Origin: an uncultured Lachnospiraceae bacterium
GTDB lineage: Bacteria > Bacillota > Clostridia > Lachnospirales > Lachnospiraceae
Assembly: GCA_949740725.1 (NCBI GenBank)
Contig: CATJIO010000174.1
Coordinates: 8,137-72,136 of the forward strand
Direction: 5' to 3'
DNA length: 64,000 nt
Shown here one piece after another: positions 11,455 through 36,514 of this stretch; position 1 is the first letter of the stretch; each line of letters starts with the position of its first letter. The notes below the pieces were generated by a model. It was not told where the DNA came from and made no database searches. It was given only the letters and a program-made list of their open reading frames with translations. A program made the translations under genes and the position numbers.

Positions 11455-11600
11455 GGATAAACTCCTTTCAACGGGGAAACTATAGTTCCTCTGTTGCCGC
11501 AGACCGGCAGGGATGGGAACAGCAACGCTTTAAATAAATAAAGCATCTATATTCTAGCACGCTTTCACCCGCTTTTCAATCCTAATTATTTTTATCCGTT

Positions 11601-14600
11601 TTACCCCTTTAAGATCTCCAACAGTTCTTCTTTGGTGGCCAGGGTGTCCTTTAAACTTCCTTCGGAGATGATCTCATCCGAGAGCTGAGCCTTTTGCTCC
11701 TGGAGCTTTTGAATCTTTTCTTCCAGGGTATTTTTCATCAAAAGTTTGTATACCGTCACCACCTGCTTCTGGCCAATGCGGTGGGCGCGATCGGTGGCCT
11801 GATTCTGAGCGGCCATATTCCACCAGGGATCAAAGTGAATCACAATGCTGGCGGCGGTAAGATTTAATCCAGTTCCTCCGGCTTTTAGCGAGATCAAAAA
11901 TACCGGGGTCTTATCCTGATTAAAATCCGCTGCCATCTGGGCCCGTTTTTCCTTGGAGGTACTGCCGGTGAGCATGTAGTAAGGGATCCCTTCCTTGGAA
12001 AGCCGCGCCGCGATAATGTCTAAGGCGGTGGTAAACTGGGAGAATAAGAGAAGCTGATTCTTCCCTGCCACTGCGCTTTTGATTAATTCTATACAGGTAT
12101 CGACTTTCGCCGCCTCCCCGGTATAGTTTTCATAGACCATTGCCGGATCGCAACAGAGCTGCCGTAACTTGGTCAGTTCTGCCAGAATCTGCAGCTTGCC
12201 AGTGCAAAACTCCTCCTGGCTTTGCTGGCTGAGGGATGCTAGGAGCTGCTGCAGATTTGCATCATAAAGCTTTCTCTGCTCTCCCCCCATTTGGGAATAG
12301 ACAACCTTTTCGATCTTATCTGGAAGCTCCTTTAATACCTGAGACTTTACCCGGCGGAGGATATAGGGGCGGATCATCTTTTTTAGCCGTGTGGAGGCGC
12401 GTTCATCTTGATTAGAGGTGATGGGTTGCTCATAATTATCCCGAAACCGTTTATTGGAGTTTAAGATTCCTGGCATCAGGAAATCAAAGATGCTCCACAG
12501 CTCGCTTAAGGAATTTTCAATGGGCGTCCCGGTGAGGGCAAACCGCTGGGCACATTTCAAGGCCTTTACCGACTTAGCGGCCTGGGTGGTATAGTTCTTG
12601 ATATTCTGGGCTTCATCGATGATCACGTTCTGGAAGGAGATGGTTTCGTAGGCTTCTAAATCCCGTTTTAACAGATCGTAGGAGGTAATAAGCACATCGC
12701 CCATTCCTCCATGAATCTTTTCCCGGCGGCAGGCGGCACTTCCGGTCACGGTCACGGTCTCCAGCTCAGGGGCGAATCGCCTGATTTCACTTTCCCAGTT
12801 ATAGACCAGGGAAGCTGGACAGACGATCAGCCCCAGATATGGGGAGGAATTCCCCGCTGCCTTTTTCTGGGCCAGCAGGTAGGTAATGGCCTGTACCGTC
12901 TTCCCCAGCCCCATGTCATCGGCCAGGATGCCGCAAAAGCCCAGCTGCTTTAAAGTCATCATCCATCGAAAGCCAAATTTCTGATATGGGCGGAGCTGAG
13001 TATTCAGCCCGTCAGGCACCTCGAAGTCACTGTTTTCCACATTTTTCATTTCCCTGAGGAGGGCTTTAAAATTCTGATCCCGCTTTACCTGAAGATCTCC
13101 TTCATTTTCCCGCAATATCTGATCAAAATAGAAAGAACGGTAACCAGGGACGGTGAGATGGCCTTGGGCCAGCTGCTTTCCCGTCAGTTCCAACCCCTCC
13201 GCCATCTCCGCCACCGCTGCCAGGGCATTATCCTCCAGACGAAGAAAGGCGCCGTCGGCTAGACGGTAAAATTTCCGTTTTCGGCGATAGCTCTGAAGGA
13301 TGGCCTCCAGCTCTGATGCAGGCAGCTGTCCAGTCTCCAGATTCACATCCAGCAATCCGGTCTTCATAGTAATCCCGATTTTGAACTTTGGGGCTGGAAG
13401 GATCTGGATCCGTTTCAGGCGGTCAGAAATCATCACCTCGCCCAGGTGCTGAAGAGTGGAAATCCCTTGACTTAACAGAAGATATACCAGCTCTTCATCT
13501 TCCTCGGACAGCCGGTACAAATTTTGTATCTGGTCCACAGAGGAAAAGAAGTGGCCCAGGGTATCGATCAGGGTACGTTCTTTCTGGAAATCCCGATGCA
13601 TCTGGCTTACCGTGAGCTCTTCAATAGGATTATAGCTGCTTTCTCCGTAGAAGCAAAGGGGGGCGGCGGTAATTTCACCATTTTGCCGATCCAGATAGAC
13701 TTGAATCTGGCAGGGCTGAGGCTCATACCGGGCAAATTCCTCCGGGATCTGGCAGCTGGTGCATTGCTTCAGCACCGGCAGCACGGAACTGCAGAAGGCG
13801 CGGACATCATTGGGATGGATAAAATACGTCTTCTTCTTTCCTAAAAACAGCTCCCCTATACCCCTTATTTGCTGGGAAAAATCAGGGCTGCACAGGTAGA
13901 TGACACCTGCCATACCGATGCAGAGACGGCTGCTTCCGGAAAACACTTCCGCGGCTGGGACCGACAGCTGGTAACTGCCATCCTTTTCCTCCACAGTAAC
14001 CGGAATCCGGGGATTCTGCTCCAGGAAGGCTAGCTGGGAGGATTCTATGCCGCTCACGGCGTAGGCTTCTCCGGCCAGCACCTGGGCAAACTGCACCATC
14101 CATTCTCCGGAAAGCGGCAACTTCCGCTTCGTCAAGGTTTCCACATAATTATAGTAGGAATACTTGTAATGGCTGTAGTAGGAATGGAGCACCTCCTTCT
14201 CGTGGAGAACATACTGCTTCAGCAGGGCAAAAAGCTTCTGGCTTTGAGGGGTAAACACGCTTTGCTCATGATAAAATGCCAGCTTCTTCCCATATTCTAC
14301 CCATTCATGCTGGGCCATAGCCTCCACCATATAGGGAATATTTTTTAAAATATATTTGTGGGAAGCGCCGATCTTAAATTCCACAGTCCAGCGATTATCC
14401 TGTTTATCAAAGAGGGGGATCAGCTCCACCTGGCCAGTCAGCCCTGGCTGCAGATATTGGGCCTTTTCCTTCATGGAGCTAGTATAGATGATATTGGTGA
14501 GAGCGGCATCGGTAGCCTTGGCATAGCTGGTGATTTTTTCTGGAGAGGAAGAGGCATTGCTTCTTCCCTGGCGCTTTTCCATATAGTGAGATTCCAGGGC

Positions 14601-14870
14601 GACGGCAATACAATGTTTACACATTCCAGAGTAGGAATAAAATGCCTCACATTCACACTGGTAACGTTCAAAAACTTCGTTTTCGTGGTTGTAGATCAGA
14701 TTTACCTGGTATTGATTTCCATAGGATCCAGTTACATCCGCGTCCACCTGGGTTCGTTCATGGTCATCCGTGTAATGATACCGAACAATCTTTCCGCTTT
14801 TATAAAGCTGATTTCCTTTGGCGTAGGCAGCGGATTTGGAGATCCTTCGTATGGACGATAAGGTGATCAT
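11601..14870 (-). CDS. SWIM zinc-finger SNF2-family helicase
   Basis: CEC...CKHC SWIM finger, LADDMGLGKT, IIDEAQ, LTGTPIEN, DPWWN, QATDRAHRIGQ; likely start MITLSS at 14870. Confidence 0.9.
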   Translation of the reverse strand: MITLSSIRRISKSAAYAKGNQLYKSGKIVRYHYTDDHERTQVDADVTGSYGNQYQVNLIYNHENEVFERYQCECEAFYSYSGMCKHCIAVALESHYMEKRQGRSNASSSPEKITSYAKATDAALTNIIYTSSMKEKAQYLQPGLTGQVELIPLFDKQDNRWTVEFKIGASHKYILKNIPYMVEAMAQHEWVEYGKKLAFYHEQSVFTPQSQKLFALLKQYVLHEKEVLHSYYSHYKYSYYNYVETLTKRKLPLSGEWMVQFAQVLAGEAYAVSGIESSQLAFLEQNPRIPVTVEEKDGSYQLSVPAAEVFSGSSRLCIGMAGVIYLCSPDFSQQIRGIGELFLGKKKTYFIHPNDVRAFCSSVLPVLKQCTSCQIPEEFARYEPQPCQIQVYLDRQNGEITAAPLCFYGESSYNPIEELTVSQMHRDFQKERTLIDTLGHFFSSVDQIQNLYRLSEEDEELVYLLLSQGISTLQHLGEVMISDRLKRIQILPAPKFKIGITMKTGLLDVNLETGQLPASELEAILQSYRRKRKFYRLADGAFLRLEDNALAAVAEMAEGLELTGKQLAQGHLTVPGYRSFYFDQILRENEGDLQVKRDQNFKALLREMKNVENSDFEVPDGLNTQLRPYQKFGFRWMMTLKQLGFCGILADDMGLGKTVQAITYLLAQKKAAGNSSPYLGLIVCPASLVYNWESEIRRFAPELETVTVTGSAACRREKIHGGMGDVLITSYDLLKRDLEAYETISFQNVIIDEAQNIKNYTTQAAKSVKALKCAQRFALTGTPIENSLSELWSIFDFLMPGILNSNKRFRDNYEQPITSNQDERASTRLKKMIRPYILRRVKSQVLKELPDKIEKVVYSQMGGEQRKLYDANLQQLLASLSQQSQEEFCTGKLQILAELTKLRQLCCDPAMVYENYTGEAAKVDTCIELIKSAVAGKNQLLLFSQFTTALDIIAARLSKEGIPYYMLTGSTSKEKRAQMAADFNQDKTPVFLISLKAGGTGLNLTAASIVIHFDPWWNMAAQNQATDRAHRIGQKQVVTVYKLLMKNTLEEKIQKLQEQKAQLSDEIISEGSLKDTLATKEELLEILKG

Positions 14871-14944
14871 TTCTATCCCTCCCAAGTGAAAAGATGCGTT
14901 AAAAGTTTTCCCGGAACCCTCTGGACGGAGGATTCCGGGAAATG

Positions 14945-16198
14945 TTATCGAATCTGAAAATCCTCCTCCATCTGACATAAGAGAGAGGATAGCCTGCAAT
15001 CAGAAAGAGCAGAGCCATTTTCCTTCATTTGCTTTACTACATTGAAAATAGAGCTGGCAGAGATATACTCCTGGTAAATTTGATTCCCATCCTCCCCAAA
15101 AGTGCCGTCCTGGAAAGCGGAAATCAGCACATCCCACATGGGCCAGTAGTCGGCCAGCTGGGTAGCATAGCAAGTCACAGCCGGCGCGCTGCCCAAGGTG
15201 ATATCGAGTGTCTCGCTGAAAGAGATATCTGGAAACGCATTCTGTGCGCACAGCTCTGGAAGGAAGAGGTAGCACTCCTGAGCCAGGGTAGCGTCACCGA
15301 TGGCTTTTGCCAGCCGATCACGCAGAGAATCGTAGAGCTCCTGGGTATTCGCCTGATGGAATAGCTTTGCCGCCTGGATCACGGCGTTACGAAACTGTTC
15401 CCGTCCCTGGGGGCCGGAATAAGGATAGGGCAGATAAGTGCTCTCCTCCTGGCGGATCAGGAAAAACTGCTTGTGGGATGCAAAGGGCCCATTCTCCCAC
15501 TTTTCCACCAGATGGGCCACCTTCTGGCTTAATTCCTCGCTTTTTTTATCATCGATCCGGCACTCACCAGTAATCTGGCCATTTACCTTCGCGGCATAAA
15601 CCTTGACAAAGCAAAACTCCTGGTTCCCCAATCGCTTGCGGATATCCTCCTTTAGGAGCCTCCAGTACACATCCGGAGCAGACTGGGGGGAATTCCCCAT
15701 CCCCACAATGTTGCTTAAATATACCTGGAAGTCATGGGGGTTTTCTGCAAACTCTGTATGTAAGAGCTTAGGACGGTCATTGCTTTCCATGGCTCCGATT
15801 CCATCCATCAAAGAGAACAGGAAGGATCCCACGGCCATGGCGAAGGCCTGCTTTAAGTCTGTTCCCATACCGGCGGAGCACTCGTAGATTTCTTTTCCCC
15901 ATACCGGGAAATACAGGTAAATGTCCAGTACTACGCTGGTATGGGTGATCTGGCTGATCTGAGGGGTAATGGCGACCTTCCACTCTGGGATATGGATGCA
16001 GTCCTCATCGTCGCCTACTGTGTCCGGCACCTCGAATCCATGGTGGAGAACGCCGTGGAGAAGATATTTTTGGATGTATGGGGTCAGCTCTGTGTAGCTG
16101 CGTTCTTCCTCGGGAATATCCAGGATGGCATCGATGATTTCCTGATATTTGTTCTTTTGACACAGTGATTCCAGGGCTTCCTGATATTTGGGTTCCAT
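14945..16198 (-). CDS. Conserved hypothetical protein, DUF6348-like
   Basis: Long ORF with GGAGG RBS before MEPKYQ (16198); family call from recalled resemblance only. Confidence 0.5.
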   Translation of the reverse strand: MEPKYQEALESLCQKNKYQEIIDAILDIPEEERSYTELTPYIQKYLLHGVLHHGFEVPDTVGDDEDCIHIPEWKVAITPQISQITHTSVVLDIYLYFPVWGKEIYECSAGMGTDLKQAFAMAVGSFLFSLMDGIGAMESNDRPKLLHTEFAENPHDFQVYLSNIVGMGNSPQSAPDVYWRLLKEDIRKRLGNQEFCFVKVYAAKVNGQITGECRIDDKKSEELSQKVAHLVEKWENGPFASHKQFFLIRQEESTYLPYPYSGPQGREQFRNAVIQAAKLFHQANTQELYDSLRDRLAKAIGDATLAQECYLFLPELCAQNAFPDISFSETLDITLGSAPAVTCYATQLADYWPMWDVLISAFQDGTFGEDGNQIYQEYISASSIFNVVKQMKENGSALSDCRLSSLLCQMEEDFQIR

Positions 16199-16619
16199 AA
16201 TGCTTCCTCCTGATTTGGTGGTTTTATTCTGGGAGATGAATATTTCTGTGCTTCCTGTCACTTTATAGTATCATAGACAGGGGGAGCATTCAATCCTTTT
16301 TGGAGGATGAGGGGATATTTTGTTAAGTCTTTTTTTACCTAGATTACCTTAATGATTGATGTTTCCATGGATGTTCTGTACAATGAAAAAAGAAACCTAA
16401 CTTTTTGTAAGGTGGAGAGGAAAGGAGGGAAGGGAAAATTAGGAAGAAAATCAAACAAAAAGTTTGCTTTTAGTATAAAATAGATGAAAATATTGTGGAA
16501 TATATACATGATACTAACAATAAATACCACATAATTCACAAAAACATAAAAACATTACAAAAAGTCTTTACGGATAACAAAAAGTATGGTATTCTATAAC
16601 CAGTAAAGGAAAGGGAAAG

Positions 16620-17282
16620 ATGAAGGAATTAAAACAAGAAAAAGAGTTTTTGACACAGCTGATGGATATGCTGGAACAGCAGATGGGCCCTCATACAGAG
16701 ATTGTTCTCCATGACCTGAAGAAGGATTATGCTACGACCATCGTGGATATCCGCAATGGCCATGTGACTGGACGGAAGGTTGGGGGGACTGGGAGTAATC
16801 TGGGACTGGAGGTTTTACAGGGGACGGTGAAGGATGGCAATCGGTTTAACTATGTTACCCGATTAAAGGATAACCGGATGCTTCGCTCCTCGTCCTTGTA
16901 TATTGAAGATGATGAGGGGAACCTGATCGGATGCCTTTGTGTGAATACGGATATTACTGAGAGCATCAAGCTGGAGAATTACTTAAAGGAGATTAATCAG
17001 TACGACATAAGCCCGGCGGATAAGCAGGAGGTCTTTGTCACAGAGGTTAATCAGCTTTTGGAATATCTTCTCCAGGAGGGACAAAAGATCGTAGGGAAGC
17101 CGGCCTGTGTGATGAACCGTGAGGAGAAGCTCCAGTTTCTGAAATATTTAAACGATAAGGGGGCATTTCTCATTACAAAATCCGGGGAACGAATCCAATC
17201 GTTTTTAGGGATCTCCAAATATACCATGTATACCTATCTGGATATCATTAAGAAGGAAGAGGCAGGATCAAAAACTGAATAA
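16620..17282 (+). CDS. YheO/DauR-type PAS-HTH transcriptional regulator
   Basis: EIVLHDL, IRNGHVTGRKVGG, LRSSSLYI, GCLCVN, GAFLITKS, GISKYTMYTYL. Confidence 0.88.
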   Translation: MKELKQEKEFLTQLMDMLEQQMGPHTEIVLHDLKKDYATTIVDIRNGHVTGRKVGGTGSNLGLEVLQGTVKDGNRFNYVTRLKDNRMLRSSSLYIEDDEGNLIGCLCVNTDITESIKLENYLKEINQYDISPADKQEVFVTEVNQLLEYLLQEGQKIVGKPACVMNREEKLQFLKYLNDKGAFLITKSGERIQSFLGISKYTMYTYLDIIKKEEAGSKTE

Positions 17283-17509
17283 GCAGCAGTAATGGATGCA
17301 GCACAATAAAATACACCGGATGATAAGTTCTTTCTTGAGAATATTAGAGAAGGTGTATTTTTTGTACCCAAAATAGGCACGATCTTTACTGTGGAGGGCT
17401 AAATCAATGTTATTGTCGCAATGAGCTGAATAGTAGGAAAGGGGAGGCGATTTTGACTGACGCTGGAAGATCAAGGAGCAAATAGAAGAAGGGACAAGGG
17501 AGGTTACGC

Positions 17510-18271
17510 ATGAAAAAATTAGAAGGAAAAATTACGGTAATGACAGGGGCTGGCTGCGGATATGGGATGAGCAGCGGGTTTCCGAGAATTTTTGCCAGGG
17601 AGGGCTCTCATCTGGTGCTGAATTATTTTAAACAGGATGAGGATGGGATGAGGGCATTTCAAGAGGAGTTAGAGAATCTGGGGGTGAATGTGGTTCTGGT
17701 AGAGGGAGATATCTCAGAGGAGTCAGTGGCAAAAAGGCTGATCGACCAGGCTGTGGAGCGGTTTGGCCGTATTGATGTGCTGATTAACTGCGCGGGGATT
17801 TCGAATCCAAAGCTTCTTACCGACATCACTACAGAAGAATGGAACCGTATGATCGCGGTGGACTTAACCAGCAATTATTTTACCTGTAAATACGCGGTTC
17901 CGGTGATGATCCGTCAGAAATTCGGGCGAATCATTAATATCGCCTCCCAGGTGGGGCAAAAGGGAAGTGTGGAGCACTGCCATTATGCGGCGGCTAAGGC
18001 GGGGGTGATTGGGTTTACCAAATCCCTGGCAAGGGAAGTGGGAAAATTCAATATTACCGCCAACTGCATCGCCCCTGGCCCGATTGAGACACAGCTGATG
18101 GGAGTGGTGAGTGATGAATGGAGGAAAAATAAGGAGGCAGAGCTGGTGCTTCCAAGATTTGGGGAGTTGGAGGAGATCCTTCCCACAGCAGTATTCCTGG
18201 CAGCAGAGCCGGATGGAAATCTGTATACAGGGCAGACTTTGGGACCGAATCTTGGGGATGTGATGTATTAA
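17510..18271 (+). CDS. Short-chain dehydrogenase/reductase
   Basis: TGAGCGYGM glycine motif, NCAG, catalytic YAAAK, IAPGPIET. Confidence 0.88.
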   Translation: MKKLEGKITVMTGAGCGYGMSSGFPRIFAREGSHLVLNYFKQDEDGMRAFQEELENLGVNVVLVEGDISEESVAKRLIDQAVERFGRIDVLINCAGISNPKLLTDITTEEWNRMIAVDLTSNYFTCKYAVPVMIRQKFGRIINIASQVGQKGSVEHCHYAAAKAGVIGFTKSLAREVGKFNITANCIAPGPIETQLMGVVSDEWRKNKEAELVLPRFGELEEILPTAVFLAAEPDGNLYTGQTLGPNLGDVMY

Positions 18272-18327
18272 GAGTATCGAGGATGCTGAGTGGCAGGGAT
18301 GGAGGCGGAAAGGAGCTGGGCAATGAG

Positions 18328-19863
18328 ATGAAGGAATATTTACTGGAGACCAGAGGAATATCAAAGTCTTTCAGCACAGTGAAGGTGTTGGATGGGATTG
18401 ACTTGAAGATAAAGAGAGGAGAGGTTCATGCCCTGCTAGGGGAAAATGGAGCGGGGAAGTCCACATTGATGAAGATATTAACCGGGGTATTGGAGCCGGA
18501 TGGGGGAGAGATTTTGTATGAGGGAAAACCGCTGCATATCCGTCATCCCAGGGAAATTTATGATTACGGTATCGGTATTGTCTATCAGGAATTTAATCTT
18601 CTCCCGGATCTGACTGTGGCGGAGAATATTTTTATCGGAAGAGAGCCGGCGCTTCCGCTGAAGGGATTTATCAATGACAGGCGGCTGAATCGGGATGCAG
18701 CCAACCTGCTGGAGCAGTTAAACTGTTCTTCTATATCGCCGGGCCGGAAGGTAGCCACCTTAAGTGTGGCCCAGCAGCAGATGGTGGAGATTGGGAAGGC
18801 GCTGTCCTCCAACTGCCGGCTGCTGATTATGGACGAACCTACAGCGGCCTTAACGGATTCTGAGATTGAGACATTGTTTGATACCATACGGAGGCTGAAA
18901 GCCAGCGGAGTGGCGATTATTTATATTTCTCACCGTATGAGCGACTTAGATGCCATTGTGGATCGGGTTACGGTGCTGCGGGATGGTAAGTTAATATCCG
19001 AACGGAAGTACGACTGTACGTTAAAGGACTTGCTGATCCAGGAAATGGTGGGAAGGGAACTGAATCAGAAGTTCCCGCCCAGGCCGGATTACAAGAGAGG
19101 GAAGAAAACCCTGGAGGTAAAGGGGCTAAATGTAGCGGACAAGCTATTTGATATTCATTTCCAGGCTTACGAGGGGGAAATATTAGGGATTGCCGGATTA
19201 ATGGGAGCCGGCCGGACCGAGCTGGCCAGGGCGATCTTTGGGGCAGAGAGGATTACCTCGGGAGAAATATGGATTGATGGGGTGCGAAAGCAGATCACTT
19301 CTCCCAATAAAGCCATAGCAGAAGGAATTGGTTATATCACCGAGGACAGGAAAAAAGACGGGCTGATGCTGGAGCAGACCCTTCGGGATAATATTTCCGC
19401 AGCCAGCTTGGATCAATTCAGCAGGAATGGATGGGTAAAGGATTATCAGGTGGAGGCAGCAGCGGAGGAATATATCCGGAAGATGCGGATTAAGACGAGA
19501 GGAAGCGGACAGCTGGCGAAAACCTTGTCCGGAGGTAATCAGCAAAAGGTGATTCTTGCCCGCTGGCTTTGCCGCAAATCCCGGATTTTAATCCTGGATG
19601 AGCCCACCAGAGGGATTGATGTAAATGCCAAGTATGAGATTTACGAGCTGATGTACCAGCTGGTAGGCCAGGGGGTGACCGTGATTATGATCTCTTCGGA
19701 GCTCCCGGAGATCATCGGCATGAGTGACCGTGTGCTGGTGATGTGTGAGGGAAAGATTACTGGCGAGTTGGCAGCAGTTGAGTTGGAACAGGATAAAATC
19801 CTGCGATATGCAATGGCAAATGGAATGAAAGATAGTGGTTCATCGCCGGTGGGGCGTGAATAG
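18328..19863 (+). CDS. Sugar/nucleoside (CUT2, RbsA-like) ABC transporter ATPase
   Basis: GENGAGKST, two ABC domains, EDRKKDGL, LSGGNQQK, DEPTRGID. Confidence 0.92.
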   Translation: MKEYLLETRGISKSFSTVKVLDGIDLKIKRGEVHALLGENGAGKSTLMKILTGVLEPDGGEILYEGKPLHIRHPREIYDYGIGIVYQEFNLLPDLTVAENIFIGREPALPLKGFINDRRLNRDAANLLEQLNCSSISPGRKVATLSVAQQQMVEIGKALSSNCRLLIMDEPTAALTDSEIETLFDTIRRLKASGVAIIYISHRMSDLDAIVDRVTVLRDGKLISERKYDCTLKDLLIQEMVGRELNQKFPPRPDYKRGKKTLEVKGLNVADKLFDIHFQAYEGEILGIAGLMGAGRTELARAIFGAERITSGEIWIDGVRKQITSPNKAIAEGIGYITEDRKKDGLMLEQTLRDNISAASLDQFSRNGWVKDYQVEAAAEEYIRKMRIKTRGSGQLAKTLSGGNQQKVILARWLCRKSRILILDEPTRGIDVNAKYEIYELMYQLVGQGVTVIMISSELPEIIGMSDRVLVMCEGKITGELAAVELEQDKILRYAMANGMKDSGSSPVGRE

Positions 19864-19893
19864 CAAGAGAAAGCAAAGGATATGGAGTAGGCT

Positions 19894-20847
19894 ATGGACG
19901 TAAAATTCAATAAAAAGGAACGGAATACGCAGATTTTATTTACCTTAATGGGGCTTCTCATACTATGTATCTTTTTTTCGATAACAACAGAGAGCTTCCT
20001 GACTCAGCGGAATTTATTAAATATCGCGACACAGACCTCGGTGGCAGTGATTGTCGCCATCGCGGAAACTTACATTATTGCCAGCGGGTGTATTGATCTG
20101 TCTGTGGGCTCTGGGGTGGCCTTTTCCGGGTTGATTGCGGCTACGGCGATGAAGGCGGGGATGCCAGTACCCTTGGCCATGCTTCTGGCGCTGATGACCG
20201 GTATGATGCTGGGGGCGGTGAATGCCTTTGTGATTACCGTGCTAGGCATTGTCCCCTTTATCGCGACCTTGGGTACCAATAGCATTTTCCGGGGAATTGT
20301 GCTGGTCATTATGGATGGAGTGCCGATGTCCGGATTAAAAAGTGAATTTACCTGGATAGGCTCCGGAAAGCTCTTTGGATGGCTTCCATGGGCAGTGATT
20401 TTTATGGCCGTGATCGCGGTGGTTATGGCGGTTCTGCTGAAAAAGAGTAAATTCGGCCGTTATGTCTACGCCATTGGAAGCAATGAGCAGGCGGCGTTTT
20501 TATCGGGAATCCCGGTAAAGAAAATCAAGGTAATGAATTATATTATCAGTGGCGCTCTGGTAGCCTTTGCCGGGATGCTCCTGGCGGCCAGAGTTTCCTC
20601 AGCAGCCCCCACAGCAGGTGAGCTGTATGAGACCAATGCTATCGCAGCCTCTGTCATCGGCGGGGCAAGTCTCACTGGAGGAAAGGGCAGTATTGCGGGA
20701 ACCATTGTGGGAGCCTTTATTATCGGTGTGCTGAGCAATGGATTGAATCTGATCGGACTGAATTATTTCTGGCAGCAGGTAGCCATCGGCGTGGTGATCA
20801 TTGCCGCGGTATTCCTGGAGGTGGTTCGGGAACGGTTAAAGAAGTAA
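19894..20847 (+). CDS. RbsC-like ABC transporter permease
   Basis: IDLSVGS, PFIATLG, GRYVYAIGSNEQAA, IAASVIGGASLTGGKG. Confidence 0.92.
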   Translation: MDVKFNKKERNTQILFTLMGLLILCIFFSITTESFLTQRNLLNIATQTSVAVIVAIAETYIIASGCIDLSVGSGVAFSGLIAATAMKAGMPVPLAMLLALMTGMMLGAVNAFVITVLGIVPFIATLGTNSIFRGIVLVIMDGVPMSGLKSEFTWIGSGKLFGWLPWAVIFMAVIAVVMAVLLKKSKFGRYVYAIGSNEQAAFLSGIPVKKIKVMNYIISGALVAFAGMLLAARVSSAAPTAGELYETNAIAASVIGGASLTGGKGSIAGTIVGAFIIGVLSNGLNLIGLNYFWQQVAIGVVIIAAVFLEVVRERLKK

Positions 20848-20908
20848 CGTTGATTCTGGGGCGCCGCCTGGACGGCGGCTGCCAGAAAGAAAAATATAAA
20901 GGAGAAGA

Positions 20909-21991
20909 GTGAATATGAAGAGAAGATTAGCAGCAGGATTAGCGGCAATGATGTTGGCAGGGGCAGTGTGGGGCTGTTCTGGATCCGGGAATAATTCCGC
21001 CCAGCCGCCGGAGGCAGCAGCGGAGAAGACAGAGAATGGACCGGGGGGAGAGGAAGAAGGAGCGCAGGCACAGGAGACGGGGGAGGGCCAGGAACCGGCG
21101 GCAGGTTCCCAGACCAAGGTGATCGGTGTGATCCCTAAGTCTACCTTATTTGACTTCTATAAGATGGTGCGCCAGGGAGCAGAGGACGCGGCGGCGGAGC
21201 ATGGATATACCATCAATTACCAGGGAACCAATTCCTCTACCGATACGGCTGCCCAGCAGAATATTGTGGAAGATATGGATATGGCAGGCATGGATGCGTT
21301 GGTCATCTCCGCCATTGACGCCAAGGCTATCGGGGATGCAATCGGCGCATTAAAGGTTCCGGTGGTTACCTTTGACGATGAGATGGATCCTTCGGTATGC
21401 TATACCACGGTTTCCGTAAATCATGAGAGAGCGGCAGCGGCGGGGGCCGCCTACATTGCCCAGAAGCTCCCAGACGGAGGCAAGGTGGCAGTGGTTTCCT
21501 CAGAGGCAGGCGCAGACGTAATTCAGCAGAGGGACAGAGGCTTTAGTGAAGAGCTGGCCAAGCATGAACAGTTTGAACTGGTGGGAATTTACCATACTGA
21601 GGGAGACCGGGAGAAGGCCACGAATATTATGCAGGATCTCTTGTCCGAGCACCCGGATCTGGTGGCGGTGTTCTGCTGTAATGAGGGTTCTTCCGGCGGC
21701 GTAAGCAAGGTATTAAAGGATGAGGGCCGCACCGATATCCTGGCGGTGGGCTATGATTCCTCTGAGGAATTAATTAACAATATTTACGATGGAAGCCTGG
21801 ATGCCCTTATCTCCCAGAACCCCTATGGCTTAGGCTATAATTCGGTAACTGCGGCCATCGAGGCCATCGAGGGAAAGACGGATTTCCCAGATGTGACGGA
21901 GAGCCCCTACTGGCTCATTGACCAGGAAAACATCCATGATCCGGAGGTGATCCAGATACTGGATCCTCTAGGGACCCTGAATTTACAATAA
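20909..21991 (+). CDS. RbsB-like ABC substrate-binding lipoprotein
   Basis: Lipobox VWGC, low-complexity linker, periplasmic-binding-protein class I motifs (VGYDS, QNPYGLGY). Confidence 0.88.
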   Translation: MNMKRRLAAGLAAMMLAGAVWGCSGSGNNSAQPPEAAAEKTENGPGGEEEGAQAQETGEGQEPAAGSQTKVIGVIPKSTLFDFYKMVRQGAEDAAAEHGYTINYQGTNSSTDTAAQQNIVEDMDMAGMDALVISAIDAKAIGDAIGALKVPVVTFDDEMDPSVCYTTVSVNHERAAAAGAAYIAQKLPDGGKVAVVSSEAGADVIQQRDRGFSEELAKHEQFELVGIYHTEGDREKATNIMQDLLSEHPDLVAVFCCNEGSSGGVSKVLKDEGRTDILAVGYDSSEELINNIYDGSLDALISQNPYGLGYNSVTAAIEAIEGKTDFPDVTESPYWLIDQENIHDPEVIQILDPLGTLNLQ

Positions 21992-22017
21992 GGATTTAAA
22001 AGGCGGGGAAAGAAATT

Positions 22018-23376
22018 TTGGGAAGATATTTTAGCAAAATCATTAAAAATGGAACGTTGGTTCTGGAAAATGGATGCGAGAGGGCGGATCTGGGGATCCG
22101 AGGAGAGAAGATTGCCGGGATTCTTGCGCCGGGAAATGAACTGGAGGCAGAGGAGATGGTGGACGCTTCCGGGCTGACGATCTTCCCAGGAGGAATTGAC
22201 ACCCATACCCATTTTTTCGAACCAGGAGCCAATTACCGGGAGGATTGGCTATGTGGAACCAGGGCGGCGGCCGCTGGAGGCTATACCCTGGTAATGGAAA
22301 TGCCTAACAGCAGCCCTCCGGTGATTGATGAGCGGACATTTGGAGTGAAGTATGGGCTGGCAGAGGGCCGATCCCTGGTGGATTTTGCCCTGTGGGGCGG
22401 TGCAATCGCGGGAAACCAGGCGGAACTGGAGAAATTAAGCGCCCTGGGCTGCATCGCCTTTAAGGGATTTACCCTGGAGGCGGGGCCGGAATTTCTCTGG
22501 CTGAATCATCAGCAGCAGGTAGATGCCATGAGGGAGGTAAGGAGGCTGGGGAAGGTCCTGGGATTCCACGCGGAGGATGATGCCATTATCCGGGAGCTGA
22601 AGGCGCGTTTCCAGAGCCAGCCCTGGGATCTCCGGCTCCATGATGAGGCCAGACCTTATTATGGAGAACTGGCAGCCATTCAGAATGCCATTACCTTTGC
22701 AGAACATACCGGCTGTGCCATCCACATCTGCCATCTTTCAATTCCAGAAGGAGCAGAGTGCATTAAGAGGGCAAAAGCGCGGGGGGTGGATGTGACGGTG
22801 GAGAGCTGCGCTCATTATTTCCTTTTGAATTATGAGGAGCAGTTTGCGTCAGGGACCTATGGCCTGATCCAGCCGCCGTTGCGGAGCAGGGAGCGGATGG
22901 AAAGGATGTGGCCCTATCTCATGGATGGCACCATTGATTATCTGGGGACAGACCACGCGCCCTACACAAAGGAGGATAAGGAGCCAGAGGATGGGGATGG
23001 GTGGCAGGTGATGGGAGGCGCACCTTCAATCGATATTGCTTACCCCCTGATGGTGACCGAGTGTCTAAAGAGAGGGATGGCACCTCACCGTCTGGCGGCT
23101 CTGTGCGCTGGCAATGGGGCCAGGCGGTTTGGCTTATATCCAGAAAAAGGCGTGATCCAGGTGGGGGCAGACGCGGATCTGGCACTGATGGATTTAGACT
23201 ATCCCTGGAATTACACTAGGAAAAACAGCTTTTCAAAGACAAAATGCACGAAATTTCCTTATGAGGGGAGAGCGCTTTCATGCCGGGTGGTCAGCACCTT
23301 CCTCCGGGGAAGGGAGATCTATTGTGACGGGGAAATCTTGGCGAAGTCAGGGTATGGAAAATTTGTTCGCAAATAG
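22018..23376 (+). CDS. Cyclic amidohydrolase (allantoinase/hydantoinase/dihydroorotase superfamily)
   Basis: PGGIDTHTH, AAAAGG, EMPN, FK (carbamylated Lys), HAED, HICH, GTDHAP, GADADL. Confidence 0.85.
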   Translation: MGRYFSKIIKNGTLVLENGCERADLGIRGEKIAGILAPGNELEAEEMVDASGLTIFPGGIDTHTHFFEPGANYREDWLCGTRAAAAGGYTLVMEMPNSSPPVIDERTFGVKYGLAEGRSLVDFALWGGAIAGNQAELEKLSALGCIAFKGFTLEAGPEFLWLNHQQQVDAMREVRRLGKVLGFHAEDDAIIRELKARFQSQPWDLRLHDEARPYYGELAAIQNAITFAEHTGCAIHICHLSIPEGAECIKRAKARGVDVTVESCAHYFLLNYEEQFASGTYGLIQPPLRSRERMERMWPYLMDGTIDYLGTDHAPYTKEDKEPEDGDGWQVMGGAPSIDIAYPLMVTECLKRGMAPHRLAALCAGNGARRFGLYPEKGVIQVGADADLALMDLDYPWNYTRKNSFSKTKCTKFPYEGRALSCRVVSTFLRGREIYCDGEILAKSGYGKFVRK

Positions 23377-23423
23377 AATGAAGATGGTTTGCGGTATCTG
23401 CAGGAAGTGGAGAGGAATGAATC

Positions 23424-24680
23424 ATGGTTGAGATGAATAAGGAACGTTTATGGGAGAGATTACAGTATGTGGGGGGAATTGGCGCGGACCCGAGAGGGGG
23501 AATCAGCCGCTTCGCCTGGACACCTGCCTACAGGGAGGCTTGTGAGGTCCTGATGGGGTGGATGCGAGAGGCCGGGCTTACTGTCCGCATGGATACGGTA
23601 GGAAATATTTATGGGAGGCTGGAGGGTGAGGAAGATTTGCCGCCGATCCTTACAGGTTCTCACTTTGATACCGTACCTATGGGAGGAAAGTTCGACGGCC
23701 TGGCTGGGGTGATGGCGGCCTTGGAGGCGCTCACCGCCATGGCAGAGGCAGGGAAGAAGCCCAGGCGGCCAGTGGAGATGATCGCCTTTGTGAATGAAGA
23801 GGCAAGCCAGTTCCTGGGAGGGCATTTCGGAAGCAAGGCCATCTGTGGGATGCTTCCGGAGGATTACGCCCGTACTTCTGTGGATCGGGTAACCGGGATT
23901 ACCATGAAACAGGCTATGCTGGACTTTGGGATGGGGCTGGATCCGGATCACTTTGATAAAAGTTACATTAAGGAGGGGGATTATTTCGCCTTTATCGAAC
24001 TCCACATCGAGCAAGGCTGCTATCTCCTCCACGAAAACCTTCCCATGGCAGTGGTGACGGATATTGCCGGAATCAAACAGTTTTATATTACCTTACATGG
24101 AGTATCTGCCCATGCCGGCGGGATGGCTATGGAGGATCGGCACGACGCCATGGCCGCGGCGGCGGCCATTGCCTGTGAAGTGGAGCGTTTGGCGCGGGAA
24201 TCCGGATCCACCACCAGAGGTACAGTGGGGTACATCCAGGCACATCCGGCAGAGCATAATATTGTGGCAAATCAGGCGATTGTCCCGGTGGATTTTCGGG
24301 AAAAGGAGGATGGGTTGTGGCAGCAGCTGTATGACGATCTGATGCTATTCGTGGAAAAGCAGTGTGAGGCAAGAGGGCTTACCTATTCTGTCAGGAGCAC
24401 CATTAACACTTCCCCGGTGCATTGTGACAAACGTCTTGTGGATTTGATTAACCAGTGTGCGGATCAAGAGAAGATTCCCCATAAATATATGGTGAGTTAT
24501 CCGGCCCATGATGCCATGCAGATGGGGAGATTGTATCCTATGGGGATGATATTCCTCAGAAGCTCGAATGAAGGGGTAAGCCATTGCCCAGATGAATATA
24601 CTACCCCGGAGGATATGGCGGATGGAACCAGGGTGCTGTTGCGGACGATTGAACATTTGTCTGAGCAGGACAATCTGTGA
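23424..24680 (+). CDS. M20 Zn-dependent N-carbamoyl amidohydrolase (allantoate amidohydrolase/L-carbamoylase family)
   Basis: GSHFDTVPMGGKFDG, NEEA, ELHIEQG, HAG, AHDA, SHCPDE. Confidence 0.88.
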   Translation: MVEMNKERLWERLQYVGGIGADPRGGISRFAWTPAYREACEVLMGWMREAGLTVRMDTVGNIYGRLEGEEDLPPILTGSHFDTVPMGGKFDGLAGVMAALEALTAMAEAGKKPRRPVEMIAFVNEEASQFLGGHFGSKAICGMLPEDYARTSVDRVTGITMKQAMLDFGMGLDPDHFDKSYIKEGDYFAFIELHIEQGCYLLHENLPMAVVTDIAGIKQFYITLHGVSAHAGGMAMEDRHDAMAAAAAIACEVERLARESGSTTRGTVGYIQAHPAEHNIVANQAIVPVDFREKEDGLWQQLYDDLMLFVEKQCEARGLTYSVRSTINTSPVHCDKRLVDLINQCADQEKIPHKYMVSYPAHDAMQMGRLYPMGMIFLRSSNEGVSHCPDEYTTPEDMADGTRVLLRTIEHLSEQDNL

Positions 24681-24769
24681 CAGCAGAATGTAAAGGTGTC
24701 AGCACAGGGCCCGTCGGGTTTTTAAGCAAATGCCGGCAGGTTAAGAGAAGAAAGGAAATGAGGAGGATA

Positions 24770-25162
24770 ATGGAAGCGATTCGGATTTCAACAGACAAGT
24801 GCCCTCAGCCGGGGGGATGGTATTCTCAGGCATATCGGGCGGGAGGCCTGATTTTCACCGCCGGGGTGACGGCTCATGACCCGGTGACCCAGGAACTGGT
24901 GGGGCCGGGAGATATTGTAAAGCAGACAGAACAGGTATTAAAAAATATGGATATGCTCTTAAAAGAGGCAGGATCCGATCTAAAGCATGTGATCAAAACA
25001 TTGGTTTTTGTGTCTGATATTGACGACTTTCAGATTTTTAATGAAACGTATAAAGGGTTTTTCCCGGAAAATCCCCCAGCAAGAAGTACCATGCAGATTG
25101 GGAAGTTTAATCATGGCATGGTGATCGAGATAGAAGCGGTGGCTGTGGTGGCAGAGGGATAA
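24770..25162 (+). CDS. RidA family enamine/imine deaminase
   Basis: YSQA, FNETYKGFF, PPARS (catalytic Arg), IEIEAVA; start trimmed from ORF track. Confidence 0.88.
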   Translation: MEAIRISTDKCPQPGGWYSQAYRAGGLIFTAGVTAHDPVTQELVGPGDIVKQTEQVLKNMDMLLKEAGSDLKHVIKTLVFVSDIDDFQIFNETYKGFFPENPPARSTMQIGKFNHGMVIEIEAVAVVAEG

Positions 25163-25175
25163 ACATTCGTTACCG

Positions 25176-25214
25176 AAAAGGGCAGCCCTGTGTGAGAGCA
25201 GGGCTGCCTTTTTT
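25176..25214. terminator. Bidirectional intrinsic terminator
   Basis: AAAAG-GGCAGCCCTG-8nt-CAGGGCTGCC-TTTTTT between convergent ridA and uraA. Confidence 0.85.
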
Positions 25215-25226
25215 GGGAATTATTGC

Positions 25227-26477
25227 TTAATCATTGGTCAGATGCATCTGATCCAACACATAGAATACCAGGCTCAGCCCCATTCCCACTACACAGGCCA
25301 GCACCATTCCGGTGAGCTGGATATTGCCGATTTTTAGCGCGATGCCGGAAAGCCCGGTAACGAAGATCACGGAAGTCAGGCTCAAATTTCGGGAATTTCC
25401 ATAATCAACTTTAGAGTCCACCAGGATTCGCAGGCCAGAGGTACCGATCATACCGTAGAGCAGGAAGGAGATCCCGCCGATGACCGGGCCGGGGATGGTG
25501 CTGATTAAGGTGGACAGCTTTCCGCTGAAGGAACAGATTACTGAGAGAACGGCAGCTCCGGCGATGACGTAGACACTGTACACCCCAGTTACGGCCATGA
25601 CCCCAATATTTTCACCGTAGGTGGTGGTGGGCACGGAACCGATGAGGCCGGAGAGCATGGTGGAGAAATTATCTCCAAAAAGGGAACGGTGAAGCCCAGG
25701 TTCTTCCAGCAGATCACGGCCGATAATCTTGCTGGTAACTACCTGGTGCCCGATATGTTCGGAGGTGATGACCAGAATAACCGGGAGGATAATCAGGATG
25801 GCCTCCGCGCTGAATTTGGGCATCTGAAAATTGGGGATGGCAAAAAACGGCGCGGCGGACACTTCCGTAAAGTCCACAATCCCACAGAAAAGGGCGGCCA
25901 CATAGCCAGCAATGACGGCAATCAGGATGGGAATAACCGACAAAAATCCCCGGAACAGGATATTCCCAAAGACAGCGATCCCTAAGGTAACCAGAAAGAC
26001 GATAATATTTTTCGGCTGAATGACTTCATCCAAAAGCCCTGCGTTGCTTGCGGCGGAAGCGGACAGCTCCAGGCCGATCAGGGCCACCACTGGCCCCATG
26101 GCCGCTGGGGGAAGGACGATGTCGATCCATTTGGTGCCGAACTTATACACGATAAAGGCCAGGATACAGCCGCAGAAGCCAACCGCCACAAAGCCGCCCA
26201 GGGCATAGGGATAGCCGAAGTTTGCTATGACGATTCCCGCCGGGGCAAGGAAGGCAAAGCTGGAGCCTAAATATGCGGGGGCTTTTCCCTTTGTTACAAA
26301 GATAAAGAGGAGGGTTCCCACGCCGTTCATGAACAGCACAATCGCTGGATTGATGCCGAAGATAAAGGGCACTAGCACCGACGCGCCGAACATGGCGAAC
26401 ATATGCTGGATGCTTAAGGGGATCAGCATGTTTACGGGGACCTTTTCCTCAACTTGAATGATACGTTTCCCTACCAT
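25227..26477 (-). CDS. uraA: Uracil permease (NCS2)
   Basis: QHMFAMFGASVLVP, YLGSSFAF, EHIGH, TTYGENIGV signature. Confidence 0.9.
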   Translation of the reverse strand: MVGKRIIQVEEKVPVNMLIPLSIQHMFAMFGASVLVPFIFGINPAIVLFMNGVGTLLFIFVTKGKAPAYLGSSFAFLAPAGIVIANFGYPYALGGFVAVGFCGCILAFIVYKFGTKWIDIVLPPAAMGPVVALIGLELSASAASNAGLLDEVIQPKNIIVFLVTLGIAVFGNILFRGFLSVIPILIAVIAGYVAALFCGIVDFTEVSAAPFFAIPNFQMPKFSAEAILIILPVILVITSEHIGHQVVTSKIIGRDLLEEPGLHRSLFGDNFSTMLSGLIGSVPTTTYGENIGVMAVTGVYSVYVIAGAAVLSVICSFSGKLSTLISTIPGPVIGGISFLLYGMIGTSGLRILVDSKVDYGNSRNLSLTSVIFVTGLSGIALKIGNIQLTGMVLACVVGMGLSLVFYVLDQMHLTND

Positions 26478-26658
26478 TTTCTTACCTCCATAGTGGAAGA
26501 CGCCTGCAAAGTAACTGGTCTCAAACCGATATAGCGGGATGCATGGACTAAGCTATTGCCAACAGTCCATCTTTGGGGCGTCAGGTGAGCAGTGTCCGGG
26601 GAAAGCTCCGTTGCGGTTTACTGGCGCGAGTAGCAATGGAGATTCCACCCTTCTACCG

Positions 26659-26687
26659 ATTATGACATATTTTGCCCTATTCGTCTA
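26659..26687 (-). promoter_or_regulatory. Putative sigmaA promoter of uraA
   Basis: TAGACG-17nt-CATAAT with TG extension on minus strand. Confidence 0.5.
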
Positions 26688-27584
26688 CGGGAAATCAAAT
26701 AAACTGAGCTGGGTATTTTCGTAACCGCGCTTGTAAGCAGGGATAATGTCGCTCATGCGGTACAGGATTTTCTTTTCTTCACAGGCCTTTGCAAAGGTAT
26801 CCCACAACTGCTTTGCCCGGGAGCTAGTGCAGAAATAGGCATTTTTGTAGGTCTTCAGATACCTGGATTTTAACCCATCTCCGGGAAAAAGCTCTTCCAG
26901 ACGATCCAGATACCATTCTTTTTGATTATCCCGCAGGGTCATTCCAAAGGCAGGATAGATAAACCGCGCTCCGGCCTCCCCTGCCATGGAGATCAGGCGC
27001 AGGATGTCTTCTTCCCGATCTTCCAGAAAGGGGAGGACGGGCATCAGGAGGATCCCGGCGAAGAGCCCACGGGAGGAGAGGCGGGCGATAAGCTCCATCC
27101 GCTGGGAGGATGGGGGAGCATAAGGCTCTACCTTTTTGGATAATTCATCATGGGGAGTGGTGATGGTTATCTTACAGAGCACAGGGGAGTGCTCCCGAAT
27201 GCTCTGTAGAATGTCCGCGTCCCGTTCCAGCAGCGTACTTTTGGTCGCAATGCCGATGCCGAACCCGAAGGCATCCGCCAGCTCCAGGGCATGTCGGGTA
27301 AGCTGTAGCTCTTTTTCAAAGGGATTATAAGGGTCGCTCATGGAGCCGGTCCCTAACACCCCCTTTTTCACCTTTCGTCGCAGATCATCCCGGATTATGG
27401 CCAGGGCATTTTCCTTAACCTTTACCTGTTCGAACTCTTTGATCTGGTAGCAGGAGGATCGGCTGGCGCAGGAGATGCATCCGTGACAGCAACCACGGTA
27501 GATATTCATATTGTAGTTTATTCCGAACCAGCTGCTGTCTTTGGTTCGGGTGACAATGTGCTTTGCGGGTATTTGTTCGATCAT
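26685..27584 (-). CDS. Radical SAM protein (SPL-like/Rv2578c-type)
   Basis: NIYRGCCHGCISC, GSMSDPY, TKS, LMPVLPF, C-terminal QLSLF. Confidence 0.8.
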   Translation of the reverse strand: MIEQIPAKHIVTRTKDSSWFGINYNMNIYRGCCHGCISCASRSSCYQIKEFEQVKVKENALAIIRDDLRRKVKKGVLGTGSMSDPYNPFEKELQLTRHALELADAFGFGIGIATKSTLLERDADILQSIREHSPVLCKITITTPHDELSKKVEPYAPPSSQRMELIARLSSRGLFAGILLMPVLPFLEDREEDILRLISMAGEAGARFIYPAFGMTLRDNQKEWYLDRLEELFPGDGLKSRYLKTYKNAYFCTSSRAKQLWDTFAKACEEKKILYRMSDIIPAYKRGYENTQLSLFDFP

Positions 27585-27597
27585 GGCCTATTCTCCA

Positions 27598-28527: not shown

Positions 28528-28602
28528 AATGGCTTCCTCGCTGGACATTTTTTTGAAACAAATAGAGTATACCACGGATGCAGGAGTCTGAACAGTAACC
28601 AT

Positions 28603-28631
28603 TTGTAATCCCTTCACCTATACGGTATACT
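28603..28631 (+). promoter_or_regulatory. sigmaA promoter of yqeC fusion (divergent extended -10 TGGTATACT on minus strand at 28566-28574)
   Basis: TTGTAA-17nt-TATACT. Confidence 0.6.
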
Positions 28632-28665
28632 AAGGACAGAATTAGGATGTGCTTAAAGGAGTGCT

Positions 28666-31337: not shown

Positions 31338-31527
31338 GTGAAGCACCACCTTTATGTATAATTATGATATGTTCACGGTCAGTATCCCATCAGCATATCC
31401 GTTTTGCCAGAATAATTGACTGGATATAATCGTAGCACAATATTTTCATCTGGGCAAGATGAATCGAAGAAAGCGCGGCTGTCCGGGGAAAGCCGGGGGA
31501 ATTCCGATGCTGGACAGAAAGAAAGTA

Positions 31528-36469: not shown

Positions 36470-36514
36470 ACTTTGTCTTATTCAAAACCATGTTTGATTG
36501 AAGGAGGAACTCGT

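Follow-up and report, generated by a model that had tools for sequence, protein, structure and literature searches.

Several described systems resemble the operon that is the subject of this report. In the all regulon of Escherichia coli, ring opening by a binuclear-metal cyclic amidohydrolase (AllB) is followed by release of CO2 and NH3 by an M20 ureido-amidohydrolase (AllC), and L-hydantoinase and L-N-carbamoylase form another such pair. ErtD and ErtE of the ergothioneine system (hydantoin-5-propionate amidohydrolase and N-carbamyl-L-glutamate amidohydrolase) follow a similar logic, from a polar 5-substituted hydantoin to an L-amino acid. The Rut pyrimidine pathway (RutB, RutC, RutE/YdfG) joins a ureido-hydrolase and a Rid-family deaminase to a reductase that finishes the carbon skeleton, and the reductive urate (2,8-dioxopurine) pathway of gut anaerobes (SsnA, HyuA, YgeW, YgeY, YgeX) uses hydrolytic ureide opening, stepwise ureido removal and imine-forming deamination (PMC12507026). 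Here we analyze an eight-gene operon in a 64,000-nucleotide (nt) stretch of the genome of an uncultured Lachnospiraceae bacterium (GCA_949740725.1, contig CATJIO010000174.1); this whole stretch is called the window, and coordinates given without a locus name refer to it. The operon would carry out known chemistry, namely ureide ring opening and decarbamoylation, with a new gene set combining a sugar-type importer, a short-chain dehydrogenase/reductase (SDR), an obligatory Rid-family protein and a YheO-type regulator. It is likely to serve the catabolism of some cyclic ureide that is not allantoin, and we tentatively read it as a locus for uptake and breakdown of a cyclic ureide bearing a sugar or polyol, either a non-aromatic modified nucleoside or a glycosyl ureide. 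No paper on this operon was found in literature searches.

The eight-gene operon and its conservation

Open reading frame (ORF) listing and searches with domain and equivalog models were used, and eight co-directional genes were found on the forward strand at 16620-25162 (Table 1). They encode a regulator, an SDR, an importer of the ATP-binding cassette (ABC) type with three proteins, a cyclic amidohydrolase, an M20 carbamoylase and RidA. The first-pass annotation of the window had named these eight genes, all of which are present, and had noted that the operon lacks allD, allE, fdrA and genes for dihydropyrimidine dehydrogenase, racemase, kinase and nucleosidase, which is correct because only the eight genes are there. 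The structural genes are spaced by 11-89 nt. The start of RidA is most likely the ATG at 24770 behind AGGAGG, and not the GTG that opens the ORF at 24677, since the 130-residue protein starting at this ATG fits the 129-residue orthologues. The source genome is 3.3 Mb long and 83% complete, and the window lies on its contig C174.

The arrangement of all eight genes in the same order, called type A here, was found on 12 contigs besides the window, from gut genomes and metagenomes, with protein identities of 53-97%. This arrangement is far beyond chance, and the gene set is conserved, as the proposal of an undescribed pathway in the first-pass annotation had presupposed. Type A orthologues are 58-95% identical for the YheO regulator and 73-95% for the SDR, which also has a 61% identical orthologue in a related cluster (L101). 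In the sister species G003 the whole set is kept at 84-97% protein identity, together with a uracil permease gene and a radical SAM gene; beyond the eight genes, only the two closest genomes share any of the neighborhood. When one genome per prokaryote species was searched with a clade alignment of the amidohydrolase, about 20 loci exceeded 47% identity, all from Clostridia of guts or fermenters, and further loci of this clade were found in a metagenome scan. Orthologues of both the amidohydrolase and the M20 enzyme were found in two of the 18 species of the genus, and an orthologue of the SDR was found in none of 300 other genera of the family. The operon is rare.

Catalytic residues of the SDR and of RidA are intact. 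Both TGxxxGxG and the catalytic S...YxxxK are present in the SDR, which reaches no NCBIfam equivalog cut-off. In RidA, the active-site Arg (PARST) and Glu (EIEA) align with those of RidA structures; the protein is a canonical RidA and not a RutC (57 bits against the RutC cut-off of 169). A housekeeping RidA paralogue, 33% identical, is encoded elsewhere in the genome.

A separate purine (reductive urate) cluster lies at 42111-58401, arranged as ygeX-ygeY-ygeW-arcC / ssnA-ygfK-xdhD-hyuA; its members are pbuX, arcC, ygeW, ygeY, ygeX, a second yheO, ssnA, ygfK, a selenium-dependent xanthine dehydrogenase gene and hyuA. The operon could be thought to scavenge leaked intermediates of that pathway (ureidomethylhydantoin, 5-ureidodihydrouracil and diureidopropionate), which are hydantoin or ureido compounds cut by hydantoinase and decarbamoylating enzymes (PMC12507026), since it lies about 17 kb upstream of the cluster (25162 to 42111) and the two regulators are paralogous. 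This is highly improbable, because these steps are already covered in the genome by HyuA, YgeW, YgeY and YgeX, the SDR would be left without a role, and the neighborhood is not kept beyond the two closest genomes. In addition, SsnA is over its cut-off in only two of the eight other type A genomes, with a partial match in one more. An obligatory link to the urate cluster was rejected on this last count. The operon occurs also in genomes without SsnA and is distinct from the purine cluster, in agreement with the first-pass annotation.

The two hydrolases compared with allantoin enzymes

The amidohydrolase is of the allantoinase/hydantoinase/dihydroorotase group, and the clade alignment shows no variation at its metal ligands (H63, H65, K149, H184, H239 and D312). 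This binuclear metal site, consisting of HxH, a carboxylated Lys, two His and an Asp, is common to all cyclic amidohydrolases and hence does not discriminate among them. The same is true of the allantoinase model TIGR03178, which the enzyme passes marginally (Table 1), because a 41% identical paralogue on contig C76 of the same genome and a 32% identical relative from another species pass it equally. Two other allantoinase models are failed (NF004839, 383 against 631; NF005960, 292 against 688), and the identity to E. coli AllB is 36%. At the catalytic Asp, the enzyme has D312-H313-A314, E. coli AllB has D315-H316-S317, and DHS is found likewise in 3hm7. Ala314, which corresponds to Ser317 of E. 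coli AllB, is invariant in 24 clade members. Ser317 reportedly takes part in substrate binding by allantoinase; it is named solely as a docking contact in PMC9863593. The segment EDKEP after the catalytic Asp-His matches that of the L-selective hydantoinase 1gkr, which is among the closest solved relatives (265 bits). In a FastTree phylogeny rooted on HyuA of the window, with E. coli AllB as the sole characterized allantoinase reference, the enzymes of type A and of the sister clusters of type B (described below) group together with a support of 0.997, those of type E join them with 0.994, and E. coli AllB is outside. By these comparisons, the amidohydrolase does not look like an ordinary AllB.

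The M20 enzyme is the only member of its family in the genome, in which no second carbamoylase was found. Its conserved motifs (GSHFDT, FDG, NEEAS, ELHIEQG and GVSH) and metal ligands are intact. In PMC13751858 (citing Shin 2014), a QXR motif is described to hold the second ureido group of allantoate, and the residue before His-Asp to discriminate allantoate amidohydrolase (AAH; Gly) from ureidoglycolate amidohydrolase (UAH; Tyr423). When compared with E. coli AllC, the one characterized AAH sequence used as reference, Q213-R214-R215 aligns with I-K-Q in the M20 enzyme, and every member of types A, B and E reads I-[KHR]-Q there, so that the QXR motif is absent. The second position is Ala (SYPAHD), as in the Geobacillus L-N-carbamoylase 3n5f, and thus neither Gly of AAH nor Tyr of UAH. 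The M20 enzyme fails the AllC equivalog TIGR03176 (246 against 598) and passes an NCBIfam model for the allantoate amidohydrolase subfamily (402.6 against 399). Its best PDB match is 3n5f with 266 bits, followed by UAH with 242 and E. coli AllC with 191. As far as sequence can tell, the M20 enzyme is most like L-N-carbamoylase, and not like AllC/AAH or UAH.

A non-orthologous route for allantoin or 5-hydroxyhydantoin should be weighed against these results. In this route, the amidohydrolase would act as an allantoinase and the M20 enzyme as an allantoate or ureidoglycolate amidohydrolase; RidA would stand in for ureidoglycine aminohydrolase by acting on the imine of ureidoglycine or hydroxyglycine, and the SDR would stand in for AllD (ureidoglycolate to oxalurate) or reduce glyoxylate. 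All four enzymes obtain a sensible chemical role, and the best NCBIfam models for the two hydrolases are the allantoinase and allantoate amidohydrolase subfamily models mentioned above. Furthermore, neither ureidoglycine aminohydrolase (AllE) nor AllG was found in the 83% complete genome, so substitutes would be needed; the YgeW carbamoyltransferase and carbamate kinase are encoded 20 kb away, and the regulator is paralogous to that of the urate cluster. We regard this route as rather unlikely, however, because Ser317 is replaced by Ala throughout the clade, the QXR motif is missing, the position of Tyr423 in UAH is Ala, the AllC equivalog is failed by a wide score difference, and E. coli AllB falls outside the clade. 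The TRZ/ATZ amidohydrolase and the sugar-conjugate carriers of the sister clusters would also be superfluous for allantoin. By sequence, the enzymes are distinct from ordinary AllB and AllC, which the first-pass annotation had taken as a premise. Automatic annotation labels these clusters "allantoinase AllB", and identification of the substrate would correct it. Two Ldh_2 proteins are encoded elsewhere in the genome.

The likeness to L-enzymes leads to another explanation, a hydantoinase/L-carbamoylase route that frees a hydroxy-amino acid (serine or threonine) from a 5-substituted L-hydantoin or an N-carbamoyl amino acid. Threonylcarbamoyl-adenosine (t6A), as such or as the cyclic hydantoin, might be the source; the SDR would be a hydroxy-amino-acid dehydrogenase, and RidA would clear a 2-imino acid. 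The route agrees with the closest solved relatives, 1gkr (with EDKEP in common) and 3n5f, and with the canonical 2-imino-acid type of RidA. The M20 enzyme also keeps the counterparts of His226, Asn275 and Arg288 in E. coli AllC, which we take to be binders of the alpha-carboxylate. In related clusters, the TRZ/ATZ enzyme of type B scores best against nucleoside deaminase-type models, and a 4-hydroxy-2-oxo-acid aldolase closes L101. On the other hand, the operon has no pyridoxal phosphate-dependent dehydratase or aminotransferase to make the imine, the FabG-like SDR fits no known amino-acid dehydrogenase model, and type A has neither a hydantoin racemase nor an amino-acid-type carrier. A stable amino-acid product would also leave the constant retention of a Rid protein unexplained, and we consider this route unlikely.

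Sister clusters, carriers and the candidate substrate

Gut Clostridia have a larger set of allantoinase-like clusters, not described so far, of which the operon is one member. Type B clusters have the gene order M20 enzyme, TRZ/ATZ amidohydrolase, cyclic amidohydrolase, divergent LacI regulator, SDR, APC permease and RidA. Their SDR is 32% identical to that of type A, their permease matches FrlA, the fructoselysine carrier of E. coli, at 48% identity along its whole length, and the best scores of their TRZ/ATZ enzyme are against models such as 5'-deoxyadenosine deaminase. They are carried by the cultured strains Schaedlerella arabinosiphila DSM 106076 and Ruthenibacterium lactatiformans 585-1 and by at least 12 human-gut metagenome contigs, several of which are near-identical. 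The Ruthenibacterium cluster lies among genes for conjugation (TraG), an integrase and other mobile-element genes; the variant L109 is flanked by a resolvase gene and has a GPH-family (MFS_2) glycoside-type symporter. In the Ruthenibacterium cluster, an ArgE/DapE-type M20 gene (L026:11283-12603) is split into two overlapping frames (11283-11933 and 11851-12603), which would be due to either a frameshift or a sequencing error.

Type E, found in the human gut (L122), has YheO, the amidohydrolase, a Bmp/PnrA-family binding protein with ABC partners, an M20 enzyme and a Rid-family protein, and no SDR. The best solved relatives of its binding protein are Lbp, which we take to be the laminaribiose-binding protein of Clostridium thermocellum, and BmpA/BmpD of Borrelia. 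Clusters of the AH2 group occur in a Liv version with a Liv-type ABC importer, a DeoR regulator and a TRZ/ATZ enzyme (contig C76 of the same genome, G002 and G006), and, in L097, with a CUT2 system, an extended sugar-type SDR and a GntR regulator. The cluster on contig C76 (L013:8244-16910) encodes the DeoR regulator, the 41% identical allantoinase-like paralogue, the Liv-type ABC importer and a TRZ/ATZ enzyme 48% identical to that of type B, and is kept in two congeners without any M20 carbamoylase. In type D (L101:283-11671, congener G005), genes for YheO, RidA, an Opp-type ABC importer, SDR, an ArgE/DapE deacylase, an allantoinase-like enzyme and an HpcH/HpaI aldolase are found; the last, a 4-hydroxy-2-oxo-acid aldolase of HpcH type, suggests a 4-hydroxy-2-oxo acid as the end product.

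All complete loci of types A, B, B2 and E among these clusters have the amidohydrolase, the M20 enzyme and a Rid-family protein in common as a constant core. In the Herbinix type A operon (L023:12635-13102; also L021:591-1076), canonical RidA is swapped for a YjgF_endoribonc-type Rid protein, 46% identical to that of the Bmp-type cluster L122, which by this comparison is a non-orthologous displacement within the Rid superfamily. Since a Rid-family protein is always retained, even when RidA is replaced, an imine or enamine intermediate seems to be intrinsic to the pathway. The redox step would be accessory, because type E has no SDR.

Within the clade of types A, B and E, every carrier is from a sugar, sugar-conjugate or nucleoside family, and the AH2 cluster L097 likewise pairs a CUT2 importer with an SDR of sugar type. 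The CUT2 importer of the operon has the architecture of RbsABC, and every equivalog score is under its cut-off; it is a relative, and probably not a ribose carrier. The binding protein has a signal peptide that ends in Cys, and ribose-binding proteins are the nearest among its solved relatives (about 1e-29). Ten pocket residues have been given for the E. coli ribose-binding protein (PMC2630998), and seven of the ten are kept. Ten type A orthologues all have F15, D89, R141, N190, D215 and Q235, with Tyr in place of F16; the changes are N13 to F/Y, R90 to D/C and F164 to G. The retained polar residues presumably bind O2-O4 of ribose, and the altered ones presumably face the anomeric end and one ring face. 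The pocket can thus be read as a polyol platform with a remodelled, roomier end, which would suit a substituted sugar.

From these features, we infer a small and very polar substrate, most probably with a sugar or polyol. It could be a glycosyl ureide, or could resemble a nucleoside whose ring is non-aromatic and of the hydantoin or dihydropyrimidine type. The locus would be inducible; the compound would enter through the lipoprotein binding protein and the CUT2 ABC transporter, the amidohydrolase would open its ring at the imide bond, and the M20 enzyme would take off the terminal carbamoyl group as CO2 and NH3. The labile amino/imino product would be a glycosylamine or an alpha-hetero-substituted amino acid, of which the imine form would be hydrolyzed by the Rid protein with release of further NH3. 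A single NAD(P)-dependent redox reaction, oxidative or reductive, would fall to the SDR, which would act on either the sugar part or the freed carbon skeleton. The first-pass annotation had suggested breakdown of a ureide or modified nucleoside with a redox step; this is supported, with indirect support for the nucleoside option from the carriers of sister clusters.

Several points speak against a sugar-bearing substrate. Related clusters have amino-acid- or peptide-type carriers (Liv-type in C76 and Opp-type in L101), and the clusters compared for their carriers are paralogous and may act on different substrates. With its Asp, Arg, Asn and Gln, the ribose-like pocket could also accommodate allantoin or another sugar-free ureide of about that size. 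Genes for a glycosidase, a nucleosidase or a sugar kinase are missing from the operon. The known substrates of canonical RidA are 2-imino acids and not glycosylamines, and M20 carbamoylases normally act on the N-carbamoyl group of primary amines, whereas an N1-glycosylated ring would give a carbamoyl group on a substituted nitrogen.

The amino-acid- and peptide-type carriers and the LacI and DeoR sugar-type regulators of the sister clusters would agree with another kind of substrate, Maillard or glycation ureides and hydroimidazolones (hydantoins of sugars or dicarbonyls with urea or arginine). In that case the SDR and RidA might form an oxygen-independent deglycating pair, by oxidation of a C-N bond and subsequent imine hydrolysis. 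The FrlA-like permease of type B, its TRZ/ATZ enzyme of amidine/guanidine-hydrolase type, and the ArgE/DapE-type deacylases of L026 and L101 are also consistent with this. Since the argument is wholly circumstantial, a literature search found no demonstrated pathway or substrate pool, and the type A carrier is sugar-type and not amino-acid-type, such ureides are quite improbable.

A more specific form of the sugar-bearing reading is a dedicated route for a modified ribonucleoside from tRNA turnover, such as 5,6-dihydrouridine, an oxidized hydantoin nucleoside or (c)t6A, in which the base would be dismantled on the sugar and the Rid protein would finish the process by hydrolysis of the glycosylamine or imine so formed; it would be the first route of this kind. 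To this we assign little probability. We know of no catabolic pathway for such modified ribonucleosides, which are abundant, and at which no specific search was directed. Identification of the substrate would add a nitrogen-salvage route to gut metabolism, and could show how anaerobes dispose of modified nucleosides or sugar-urea adducts, compounds without a known pathway. Since two strains with the type B sister cluster are in culture, the question is directly testable.

Regulation, surroundings and related systems

The features of the operon are compiled in Table 1, together with the positions of type B loci.

Table 1. Coordinates of the operon genes and associated elements in the window, and of type B loci
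Feature	Position	Strand	Details
Four copies of ACAAAAAGT, candidate operator array	16400-16585	+	Upstream of yheO
yheO, YheO/DauR-type regulator	16620-17282	+	PAS_6 PF08348 4e-33; HTH_22 PF13309 4e-14
Terminator-like hairpin followed by U-run	17303-17365	+	Directly 3' of yheO; -18.3 kcal/mol, z = -4.35
Box TTTTGTACCCAAAAT with -10-like CAAAAT, candidate promoter/operator of structural genes	17360-17374	+	
SDR, classical, FabG-like	17510-18271	+	adh_short 1e-48
CUT2-type ABC ATPase, two fused nucleotide-binding domains	18283-19863	+	XylG/RbsA/AraG models 540-569 bits, each under cut-off
CUT2 permease, RbsC-like	19894-20847	+	BPD_transp_2 7e-43; RbsC model 250 bits (cut-off 398)
Lipoprotein substrate-binding protein, ribose-binding-protein-like	20909-21991	+	Peripla_BP_4 1e-54
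Binuclear-metal cyclic amidohydrolase, allantoinase/L-hydantoinase-like	22018-23376	+	TIGR03178 375.7 (cut-off 357.85)
M20 N-carbamoyl-amino-acid amidohydrolase, hydantoinase/carbamoylase family	23424-24680	+	TIGR01879 380.6 (cut-off 204)
RidA enamine/imine deaminase	ORF 24677-25162, likely start 24770	+	TIGR00004 122.2 (cut-off 106.25)
Bidirectional intrinsic terminator	25181-25214	both	GGCAGCCCTG...CAGGGCTGCC, then TTTTTT on + strand; common to convergent uraA
Type B loci	L028:7240-15207; L026:6344-16295; L108-L121		

Both PAS_6 and HTH_22 of the regulator are over cut-off, as in YheO/DauR regulators. All four matches of ACAAAAAGT in the window are in the array before yheO, compared with 0.30 expected. 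Each of the ten aligned type A loci has the motif 5' of yheO, and one copy falls within a sigma-70-like promoter spacer; in the window this is the last copy, and the promoter consists of TTTACG (16567-16572), a 17-nt spacer and TATTCT (16590-16595). These boxes are a putative operator. The TTTTGTACCCAAAAT box occurs once in the window and is kept in all type A loci just 5' of the SDR ribosome-binding site, at a few tens of bases from the SDR start in most loci. A repeat search of the two intergenic regions found no inverted-repeat operator, and Rfam gave no RNA family anywhere in the window.

A long stem followed by a U-run was found after yheO in all seven type A loci folded. The stem sequences differ among loci; these spacers between yheO and the SDR gene were folded singly, and RNAalifold gave no consensus because the stems do not match up in position. 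The first-pass annotation had described a self-contained unit ending at a terminator. The terminator is there, as a 10-bp GC-rich hairpin (25181-25208) with TTTTTT after it, but a single unit is not retained, because yheO has its own hairpin and U-run and the locus is thus probably composed of two transcription units. We infer that yheO is autoregulated and that the structural genes are under a separately controlled promoter. YheO would sense the substrate or an intermediate, its probable sites of action being the ACAAAAAGT boxes and the box that overlaps the structural-gene promoter.

A second YheO-type regulator gene (48762-49433, reverse strand), whose product is 41% identical to that of the operon, is divergent from ssnA in the urate cluster. 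In the intergenic region between the two, a 35-bp palindrome (TACAAAAATTTTTAGAT / ATCTAATTTTTTTTGTA) is present at 49545-49579, and its ACAAAAA ends look like the boxes 5' of yheO in the operon. In these bacteria, the breakdown of urate and of ureides may be regulated by YheO proteins.

Upstream of the operon, an 1132-residue SNF2-family helicase with a bacterial SNF2-associated domain and a DUF6348 protein are encoded at 11601-16261 on the reverse strand. The 360-bp spacer before yheO is AT-rich, and the GC content is 0.43 over 16001-18000, compared with about 0.50 for the window. Downstream, the uracil permease gene uraA (25227-26477, reverse strand; NF007995, 622 bits against a cut-off of 477) is convergent with the RidA gene and shares its terminator. 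Since this adjacency is limited to the two closest genomes, the permease is probably outside the system. A hydrolytic uracil route to 3-aminoacrylate, to which the permease might point, was put aside for the same reason and because the Rid protein is RidA-type and not RutC-type.

When the operon is compared with the systems described at the outset, the differences are mainly in the partners of the two hydrolases. With respect to AllB/AllC, the locus has no AllE, AllD-type or AllFGH partners, and has a sugar-type ABC importer in place of an allantoin permease, in addition to SDR, RidA and YheO. The L-hydantoinase/L-N-carbamoylase pair (1gkr, annotated as a non-ATP-dependent L-selective hydantoinase, and 3n5f) is among the closest solved relatives, and the carbamoylase shares with the M20 enzyme the Ala at the position of Tyr423 in UAH and the residues aligned with the carboxylate triad. 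The side-chain strand is I-K-Q in the M20 enzyme and L-I-W in the known carbamoylase, and the operon joins the pair to CUT2, SDR and RidA without a hydantoin racemase. Classical hyu clusters carry an NCS1-type hydantoin permease, which the operon does not have. The ErtD model is third for the amidohydrolase after two allantoinase models (307 bits, far short of the cut-off of 650), and the ErtE model is third for the M20 enzyme after the allantoate amidohydrolase subfamily model and TIGR01879 (353 bits, far short of 520); no ergothionase or thiourocanate genes accompany the operon.

The reductive urate pathway resembles the operon also in its regulator, which in the window is a YheO paralogue. 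Its enzymes are of other lineages, and the operon has a sugar-type importer and neither a molybdenum/selenium or flavin reductase nor a carbamoyltransferase. Unlike the Rut pathway, the operon has no RutA monooxygenase, its Rid protein is canonical RidA, and its ring opening would be hydrolytic.

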